Shown: positions 40,874 through 41,161, counted from the stretch's first letter. The stretch is DNA of 64,000 nucleotides from Alphaproteobacteria bacterium (GCA_041557595.1 JBFFGE010000002.1:9047-73046), one strand, 5' to 3'. Translations and numbers: made by a program. Notes: a model not told the origin generated them from the letters alone.

Positions 40874-41161
40874 TTATGCGGCGTGCTGCGTTGCGGCCGG
40901 GTTCGCGTTGGGGCTAACGGCCATGGCGCCTGTGACAGCGTTTTCGGCAATGGCGCCGTCGCCGAATGTCGACAGCGCGTCGATCGCCGCGCGGATCATG
41001 CGCTTTTCGTTACGGATGACGATGTCGGGCGCCTGCATGCGGATGAGCCGCTTGAGCCGGTTGTTGCGGGTGATCACGCGGCGGTACAGATCCAGCCGAC
41101 CCATCGGGCGATCGATGCGGTGACGGGATTGGCTGGCGGTCCGGGTTGGATGTCGTGCCAT
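40874..41161 (-). CDS. 95-aa protein whose core is homologous to the RNA polymerase beta-prime clamp helices (sigma-docking coiled coil); function unknown
   Basis: The ATG at 41161 follows GGAGG with a 9-nt spacing, and the stop is TAA at 40874-40876. The core [40 protein letters not shown] matches my recollection of E. coli RpoC ([40 protein letters not shown]). Third-position GC is high, like the host genes. Confidence 0.7.

Follow-up and report, generated by a model that had tools for sequence, protein, structure and literature searches.

A free-standing homologue of the RNA polymerase beta' clamp helices, encoded by a small mosaic gene of uncultured Alphaproteobacteria

The locus described here raises the question of whether a short open reading frame that resembles one structural element of RNA polymerase is a gene in its own right and, if it is, from where it came and what its product could be doing in the cell. 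The element concerned, the beta' clamp helices, has several ligands. A recombinant fragment of beta' (residues 260-309) has been used in vitro as a sigma-binding piece, NusG and RfaH also bind to the clamp helices, NusG-type factors at the tip of the hairpin, and the contact between sigma and the clamp helices, which is the primary interface in the formation of the bacterial holoenzyme, has been studied as an antibiotic target. For every factor of the sigma-70 family it is mainly on these helices that region 2 docks, and region 2 of sigma-70 and of the ECF sigmas does so via a conserved polar surface (PMC6648896; PMC7406223). Placed on the clamp helices, region 2 has a higher affinity for the single-stranded DNA of the -10 element (PMC12000874, citing Arthur 2000 and Young 2001), and R275, E295 and A302 of beta' are needed for the binding of sigma-70 (PMC8321222, citing Arthur et al. 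2000).

A small gene resembling the clamp helices

The small ORF was found in a stretch of 64 kb from an alphaproteobacterial assembly, which we analyzed as a whole and will refer to as the window (Table 1). A previous reading, made from the sequence only, had proposed the limits of the ORF, a ribosome-binding site 9 nt before the start and a gap of 39 nt between its stop and the next ATG (40834); all of these were reproduced, and the translated product was exactly the 95 residues that had been given. The third-position GC had been described as host-like and indeed GC3 was 0.79 for the small ORF, against 0.73-0.84 in the neighboring genes, with a value of 0.90 for the core and of just 0.61 for the N-terminal tail. 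The gene for the exact 95-aa protein was present on 16 contigs, which come from independent assemblies in NCBI and Logan, with the same neighbors and intact in 16/16. Full-length homologues had 98, 82, 62 and 59% identity, and the orthologues of the window protein are P0001-P0004 and P0260-P0262.

Table 1. Position of the small ORF, its parts and the surrounding features in the window.
Feature	Position	Strand	Remarks
Small ORF, 95 aa + TAA	40874..41161	-	ATG at 41161, TAA at 40876..40874; member of the free-standing beta' clamp-helix family
Shine-Dalgarno GGAGG	41171..41175	-	9 nt before the ATG of the small ORF
N-terminal tail, residues 1-23	41093..41161	-	basic, predicted disordered, pLDDT < 50
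Core, residues 24-64 (DLYRRV...IDALS)	40970..41092	-	rpoC-derived hairpin, equivalent to E. coli beta' 267-307
C-terminal tail, residues 65-95	40877..40969	-	decayed remnant of a CMD/AhpD C-terminus, ends in conserved HAA
Stem-loop in the 157-nt CMD/small-ORF spacer	41248..41309	-	14-bp stem, RNAalifold
AhpD-like CMD gene, first of the operon	41319..41873	-	in-frame TAG at 41561..41559 (CAG, Gln105, in relatives)
tetR/CMD intergenic region	41943..42090	.	palindrome GGATACCGATCAGTATCC present twice (41943-41960, 42073-42090)
Divergent TetR-family regulator	42106..42693	+	Pfam TetR_N, E=1.8e-19; position kept in L001-L003
Downstream co-oriented genes	38586..40834	-	same order in L001-L003 and L064-L066
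YHS (seleno)protein-family gene	40834..40334	-	NCBIfam 'YHS domain-containing (seleno)protein', 154 bits
DUF4142 gene	40265..39735	-	
Cupredoxin-like gene	39729..39379	-	116-aa secreted protein
MlaC gene	39254..38586	-	

When the window protein was compared with all PDB chains by phmmer, its residues 24-68 aligned to E. coli beta' 267-311, and dozens of distinct beta' chain sequences were retrieved with E values between 1e-13 and 1e-11 (1e-13 to 6e-13 for the best chain matches). The 29 identities in 40 core positions with E. coli RpoC that had been counted by hand were the same over D267-L306 in this alignment, and the similarity is locally significant (E~1e-13). The NCBIfam model rpoC_TIGR gave a local E of 1.3e-15, and Pfam PF04997 (RNA_pol_Rpb1_1) an E of 2e-5 with 24.4 bits (23.8 for P0003), which is below the gathering score of 39.7 bits that the longer relatives described below do pass (42.6-46.5 bits). 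The match covers positions 237-275 of the 312 in the PF04997 profile for the window protein, and 224-278 for the long class. The NCBIfam rpoC scores of the small proteins, 56-82 bits, are to be read against a cut-off of 963.5. Judging from these comparisons the small proteins, of 95-118 aa, are not members of the beta' subunit family and would represent a fragment only. In contrast to beta' they have neither the zinc finger nor NADFDGD nor any other beta' element, and they are encoded by a separate natural gene, rather than a laboratory construct, with unrelated tails.

The three residues involved in sigma-70 binding, R275, E295 and A302 (E. coli numbering), are all present in the window protein, which on the other hand has substitutions of its own in the tip and helix 2. 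At the tip of the hairpin the window clade has RMQ/GMH in place of ELR, and changes are also seen at positions 299-301, 303 and 307-309. In total, 12/44 core residues differ from the alphaproteobacterial RpoC consensus and 11/40 from E. coli RpoC, in agreement with the earlier view that this is not a fresh duplication of rpoC. Since clade-specific amino acid substitutions are common to orthologues that are 0.3-0.6 apart in dS, a recent origin or ongoing gene conversion is disfavored. The small ORF was the only RpoC-like segment in the window, in which no other rpoC sequence and no sigma or nusG gene was found. The initial characterization of a diverged and independently kept clamp-helix homologue, in an operon flanked by tetR, is supported by the homology together with the conserved synteny.

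AlphaFold2 predicted two helices for the window protein (residues 22-41 and 46-64) with disordered ends; mean pLDDT by 10-residue blocks was 79-90 across residues 21-60, and below 50 in the C-terminal tail. In the 118-aa class the same hairpin is predicted, followed by two CMD-derived helices of lower confidence. Foldseek comparison with the PDB gave RpoC clamp helices for all the top matches, with an rmsd of 0.5-0.8 A over 41-42 residues in the case of the window model. According to the model, then, the window protein has the antiparallel two-helix hairpin that defines the clamp helices, superposable on beta' 267-307 and with R275, E295 and A302 in it. The PDB structural neighbors include complexes with bound RfaH and NusG, where docking takes place on this same hairpin.

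Family, composite origin and selection

The wider family was recovered by an exhaustive HMMER search of 1.84 billion representatives followed by a joint-alignment search. The former brought up P0153 and P0251, which continue after the clamp-helix segment into the C-terminal end of a CMD protein. P0153 matched the CMD protein of locus L001 (BLASTP E=4e-18), with 27/37 residues of the tail identical, and the alignment pairs its rpoC segment with residues ~88-143 of CMD. The joint-alignment search yielded at least 58 clusters (at 90% identity) of proteins of 106-118 aa with this architecture of clamp helices plus CMD tail, which we call the long class, and three more relatives of 95 aa. All come from uncultured Alphaproteobacteria, their proteins ranging from 95 to 118 aa, and we found no name for them in any source nor an NCBIfam model. 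The absence from the literature had been anticipated by the sequence-only reading, and our full-text searches likewise found no free-standing clamp-helix protein or mimic. Among GTDB species representatives, a pattern combining the core with YFNH gave nine matches, one of them real (L018, an alphaproteobacterial MAG), and no cultured host. A scan of metagenomes with a core-plus-junction pattern gave 40 matches of which three were real, 3/3 being intact, although this sample is too small for a strong test. No phage-encoded decoy appeared in viral contigs, where 5/5 matches were full-length host rpoC.

By profile-profile comparison (hhalign) the window clade and the long class aligned end-to-end with 99.7% probability, through an alignment that takes in the tail (21 window residues versus HITGTEFDFPVMDTAAASHAA) and carries a 12-residue deletion. 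As a consequence, the C-terminal tail of the window protein is best seen as a decayed CMD C-terminus and not as part of RpoC, which makes the resemblance of VTGA to ITG, pointed out before on the right flank, a coincidence. The rpoC piece of the long class spans GRFATSDLNDLYRRV...DALFD(H/N)G, about beta' 259-310 or ~52 codons, and is up to ~45/50 identical to the clamp helices of alphaproteobacterial RpoC; this rpoC-derived piece (GRFATSDLND...DALFDxG) covers nearly the same experimentally defined sigma-binding site as the recombinant 260-309 fragment. A secreted protein of 126 aa, whose gene adjoins the long-class gene in several loci, has an N-terminus that matches the first ~23 long-class residues (MAMRDTQPTVTRT..AGKF; BLASTP E=8e-7), and the third part is made of the last ~40 codons of the CMD gene, decayed in the window clade. 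Because the N-terminal part, the rpoC piece and the CMD tail each match a separate gene, the family is a three-part mosaic of the 5' end of the gene for the 126-aa secreted protein, rpoC and the 3' end of the CMD gene. The flanks had been considered otherwise unrelated; this did not hold, the C-terminal one coming from the family of the adjacent CMD gene and the N-terminal one, in the wider family, from the neighboring 126-aa gene. In spite of the 27/37 identity between the long-class C-terminal ~40 residues and the CMD neighbor of the window clade, the two features that define AhpD-like CMD proteins, the AhpD core domain and the CxxC motif, are missing from the small proteins, which had no match to PF02627 or TIGR00778; the window protein has no cysteine pair.

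The differences in length between the classes are all in frame. Two long-class paralogues located in different gene contexts are homologous over a stretch that starts 70 nt upstream and ends precisely at the stop codon, from which we conclude that the gene moves as a unit formed by a 70-nt leader and the ORF. This stretch of ~70 nt 5' of the long-class genes (L007 1997-2065, L021 401-468, L006 ~7800-8000), is kept between paralogues whose contexts differ; some gene calls take it for an N-terminal extension (MFLSRWINLAGRTAGPGDKI...), and it may be a shared promoter or leader that travels with the gene.

Selection was estimated in two ways. Within the window clade the core had a pairwise omega (Nei-Gojobori) of 0.13-0.31 and the tails one of 0.3-1.3 (0.3-0.9 for the weakly constrained N-terminal one), while the neighboring genes gave 0.04-0.2 by the same measure. 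Parsimony changes counted on a UPGMA tree of 15 DNA sequences gave a core omega of 0.27-0.36. For the 44-codon hairpin there were 89.5 synonymous and 95.5 non-synonymous changes (omega ~0.36, p=1.7e-11 against neutrality); leaving out the codons used for detection, 70.5 and 84.5 (omega 0.41, p=4.8e-8), and for helix 1 alone, which was never used for detection, 46.5 and 42.5 (omega 0.33, p=1.1e-7). The CMD-derived tail of the long class had 28 and 81, with an omega of 0.86 that is not significantly different from neutrality (p=0.27). The hairpin is under purifying selection, moderate when compared with the neighboring genes, and none is detectable on the CMD-derived tail. Only synonymous changes occurred at R270, R275, R278, L279, L282, A287, P288, A302 and L306 in the tree of 15, and in a set of 74 protein sequences R275, R278, L279, L282, A287, P288, I290 and L306 were invariant and A302 was 96% conserved; E295 is constant in this set by construction, being fixed by the selection pattern.

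Protein databases show intact ORFs only, and the sample of copies recovered through a DNA pattern, without recourse to ORF calling, is small, although 4/4 of these were open. Syntenic orthologues of 59-82% identity keep the same operon, and in each of the subfamily loci examined the ATG was preceded, at 6-9 nt, by a GGAG-type Shine-Dalgarno sequence. Taken together, the comparative data indicate that the small ORF is a real, maintained gene and not a scar of rpoC.

The operon and its surroundings

The gene order in the window was tetR and, divergently, CMD, small ORF, YHS, DUF4142, cupredoxin-like and MlaC. The small ORF was found in the same place on a 743-kb and a 75-kb contig that share the order dapE-dapD-tetR and, in the divergent direction, CMD, small ORF, YHS-like, DUF4142, cupredoxin-like (116-124 aa) and MlaC; beyond MlaC the conserved order includes glyoxalase, HAD, argB, engB and yidC. 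In the majority of independent assemblies spanning this region, with an identical small protein, the CMD gene is split into 104+52 aa, hence the nonsense mutation is real in this population.

The 18-bp palindrome GGATACCGATCAGTATCC was found twice in the tetR/CMD intergenic region against zero expected by chance. These copies are likely TetR operators, and the pair is consistent with control of the operon by TetR. The stem-loop in the spacer between CMD and the small ORF has five pairs kept through changes on both sides among four orthologous loci. The lack of a U-tract led us to reject it as a canonical terminator; a role in the processing or stability of the mRNA is possible, as is one as a protein-binding palindrome. 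A scan of the operon for sigma-70 promoters and terminators gave nothing above background near the ORF, no EcfG-type promoter (GGAAC-N16-17-CGTT) was detected upstream of 14 family genes, and Rfam had no match at the small-ORF locus when run on the whole window. The only two Rfam matches in the window were a tRNA gene and a bacterial small SRP RNA (27178-27251 and 53850-53947, - strand). Long spurious ORFs do occur in this high-GC DNA, for example one of 374 aa on the opposite strand.

Across the family the partners recur in variable order: DUF4142, cupredoxin, YHS (seleno)protein, the 126-aa secreted protein and CMD, and also DoxX, SnoaL/lumazine-binding-like and DUF1127 proteins, while the adjoining regulator is of the TetR, LysR, LuxR or TPR type. 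The neighbors are small envelope, redox or copper-type stress genes. The cupredoxin-like gene accompanies DUF4142 across the family loci; its product has the H..C..H..M pattern of a type-1 copper site (FVPHTATA...YFCIFHPSM) and scored 19.6 bits with Pfam Copper-bind, just under the threshold of 21.2. The CMD neighbor (the L001 locus, 7286-7840, included) matches AhpD-related families that have selenoprotein members, and the operon may be part of a redox or selenium-linked gene set.

What the protein might do

The product would be a small cytoplasmic protein in which the only constrained element is a free-standing clamp-helix hairpin. We envisage that three fragments (from the 126-aa gene its 5' end, from rpoC ~52 codons, and from an AhpD-like CMD gene its 3' end) were fused in a lineage of Alphaproteobacteria, and that the compact unit then spread among small envelope, redox and copper-type stress genes. 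The hairpin would show to sigma region 2 the same polar, arginine-rich surface that is used for docking on core RNA polymerase. Upon expression of an operon under TetR or LysR control, the protein would compete with the core for the binding of free sigma, so that sigma would be sequestered or the competition among sigmas re-weighted, i.e., an anti-sigma action by polymerase mimicry. Among the readings considered, sigma binding by core mimicry appears to be the best-supported mechanism, and we offer as the best explanation, tentatively and as something short of probable, that the mosaic-born hairpin binds free sigma in competition with the core. In its favor are the specific homology to beta' 267-311, the predicted hairpin, the conserved synteny, the spread over at least 58 clusters, the selection focused on the hairpin, the Shine-Dalgarno sequences in all subfamilies and the open state of all the copies found by DNA pattern. 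Against it, the constraint on the hairpin is only moderate and, in the window and 15 related loci, there was no sigma (tblastn with RpoE and RpoD), anti-sigma or NusG gene next to the family gene, which deprives us of guilt-by-association. The changes of the window clade at the hairpin tip, 299-301, 303 and 307-309 could alter or abolish the binding of sigma. We expect a hairpin of 40 residues to have a lower affinity for sigma than core RNA polymerase has, therefore an effect in vivo would depend on high expression. As pure speculation, the disordered tails and the C-terminal HAA might make the protein short-lived, like a ClpXP-type degron. We keep this as speculation because the ending has exceptions in L006 (SRAV), L008 (SHPA) and L018, for which reason an invariant HAA was rejected.

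The conservation evidence would be the same if the hairpin were a functional mimic with a partner other than sigma, whether it titrates the NGN domain of a NusG/RfaH-type factor or a protein of the YgfB/MtvS1 type, or whether its arginine stripe binds nucleic acid. The structural neighbors with bound RfaH or NusG fit well here, as does the remodeled tip of the window clade, the very place where NusG-type factors bind, and for MtvS1/YgfB docking on the coiled coil of beta' has been predicted (PMC13627669). However, neither the window nor the family loci contain a NusG paralogue, and the residues that never change, R275 and A302 (E295 by construction), are those genetically defined for sigma binding, and we regard a non-sigma partner as rather unlikely. 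The AhpD-like CMD/redox system could provide a partner of another kind, the C-terminal helices docking on CMD or forming a small helical bundle in which the rpoC hairpin is a structural substitute for the CMD helical hairpin, with no link to transcription. The 27/37 identity of the tail to the neighboring CMD C-terminus, the position of the rpoC segment opposite the corresponding CMD segment in BLASTP, the two additional helices that AlphaFold2 puts after the hairpin in the long class and the location of the window-clade gene directly 3' of the CMD gene all point that way. But the tail is precisely the least constrained part, in the window clade it has suffered a deletion and is disordered while the hairpin is retained, most long-class copies have no adjoining CMD gene, all 16 contigs have an intact small ORF although the window CMD is truncated, and the invariant residues include surface arginines and not the hydrophobic core alone. 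We give this proposal little chance of being right.

The hairpin-focused selection disfavors this last proposal and also two others. One is that the ORF is a non-functional mosaic relic, a rearrangement scar open by chance in GC-rich DNA whose conservation reflects the bias of databases towards intact ORFs. The patchwork of three gene fragments, the tails with omega of 0.86 or higher and atypical GC3, the spurious ORFs of high-GC DNA such as the 374-aa one, the rarity of the family, restricted to uncultured lineages, and the broken CMD gene next to it in the window are what one would expect of a relic. This is hard to reconcile with a hairpin omega that remains significant without the detection codons, with a Shine-Dalgarno and ATG kept in all subfamilies, with indels between classes that are all in frame, with DNA-pattern copies that are all open, with a duplication unit in the paralogues that is exactly leader plus ORF, and with a C-terminal HAA of which each residue is at least 90% conserved in the family; we consider a relic improbable. 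The other is a cis-acting leader ORF, where translation itself and not the product would control the downstream YHS and DUF4142 genes. The spacing to the YHS start is a constant 38-39 nt in the loci checked (L001, L002, L007 and L064), the duplicated unit has its 70-nt leader and sits before different gene sets, and in the window clade the conserved stem-loop is located just upstream. Nevertheless, it is the amino acid sequence, above all that of the hairpin, on which selection acts, an ORF of 95-118 codons would be a long one for a leader peptide, and in L018 and L020 the gene sits downstream, not upstream, of DUF4142-cupredoxin, all of which makes a leader ORF very improbable.

If the protein does capture sigma, the proposed outcome, in which the surface of sigma region 2.1/2.2 that binds core is occupied and sigma is kept from joining core, would be that of known anti-sigmas such as helix 4 of the class I ASD, CnrY, Rsd and MicN (PMC7406223; PMC12549904). 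Those act by occlusion and have no sequence kinship with RNA polymerase, whereas the small protein would use a copy of the polymerase docking element. Unlike them, it carries no ASD or zinc-binding motif, and in the window and the 15 loci its gene is not encoded beside or co-transcribed with a cognate sigma. Pfam and NCBIfam found no anti-sigma domain (ASD class I-III, NepR, Rsd and FlgM types) in the small proteins, giving RpoC matches only. Another parallel is PhyR, the sigma mimic of the alphaproteobacterial general stress response, which likewise imitates the transcription machinery and belongs to the same bacterial class (reference list of PMC7406223). PhyR mimics sigma to trap an anti-sigma, while the small protein would mimic the polymerase side; in addition, the small protein has no receiver domain and its gene no EcfG-type promoter upstream.

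It is possible, although doubtful, that we are dealing with the first case in nature of a protein whose imitation of RNA polymerase itself regulates transcription, a clamp-helix decoy capturing sigma (or another ligand) in an envelope, redox or copper stress response, and at the same time with a recently born gene in which three parents, including the essential rpoC, can still be read. From the comparisons made, there seems to be a substantial chance that the small protein proves categorically new once its function is known. If sigma capture were true, the availability of sigma would be under a novel kind of control, exerted by a stand-alone copy of the polymerase side and mirroring the sigma mimicry of the PhyR type, and a ready-made peptide scaffold to probe or inhibit sigma-core assembly would be at hand. 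Whatever its function, the family shows with unusual clarity how a bacterial gene can be born by the fusion of fragments, one of them from an essential housekeeping gene, with selection demonstrably centered on the captured rpoC fragment while the other pieces decay.

Two individual loci had features of their own. The orthologue in L004 (858-1145, versus 40874-41161 in the window) is itself a mosaic in relation to the window gene: its C-terminal third is near-identical (dS 0.04), while the core and the N-terminal part have diverged (dS 0.57 and 1.08), which points to intragenic recombination between lineages or to a chimeric assembly. In L006 (1-16357 of a 2.45-Mb contig) the long-class copy lies beside a truncated LysR gene in an IS-rich region that contains IS21, IS66, IS91, DDE and rve transposases and an integrase, a setting consistent with the rearrangement-prone surroundings in which such mosaics form.
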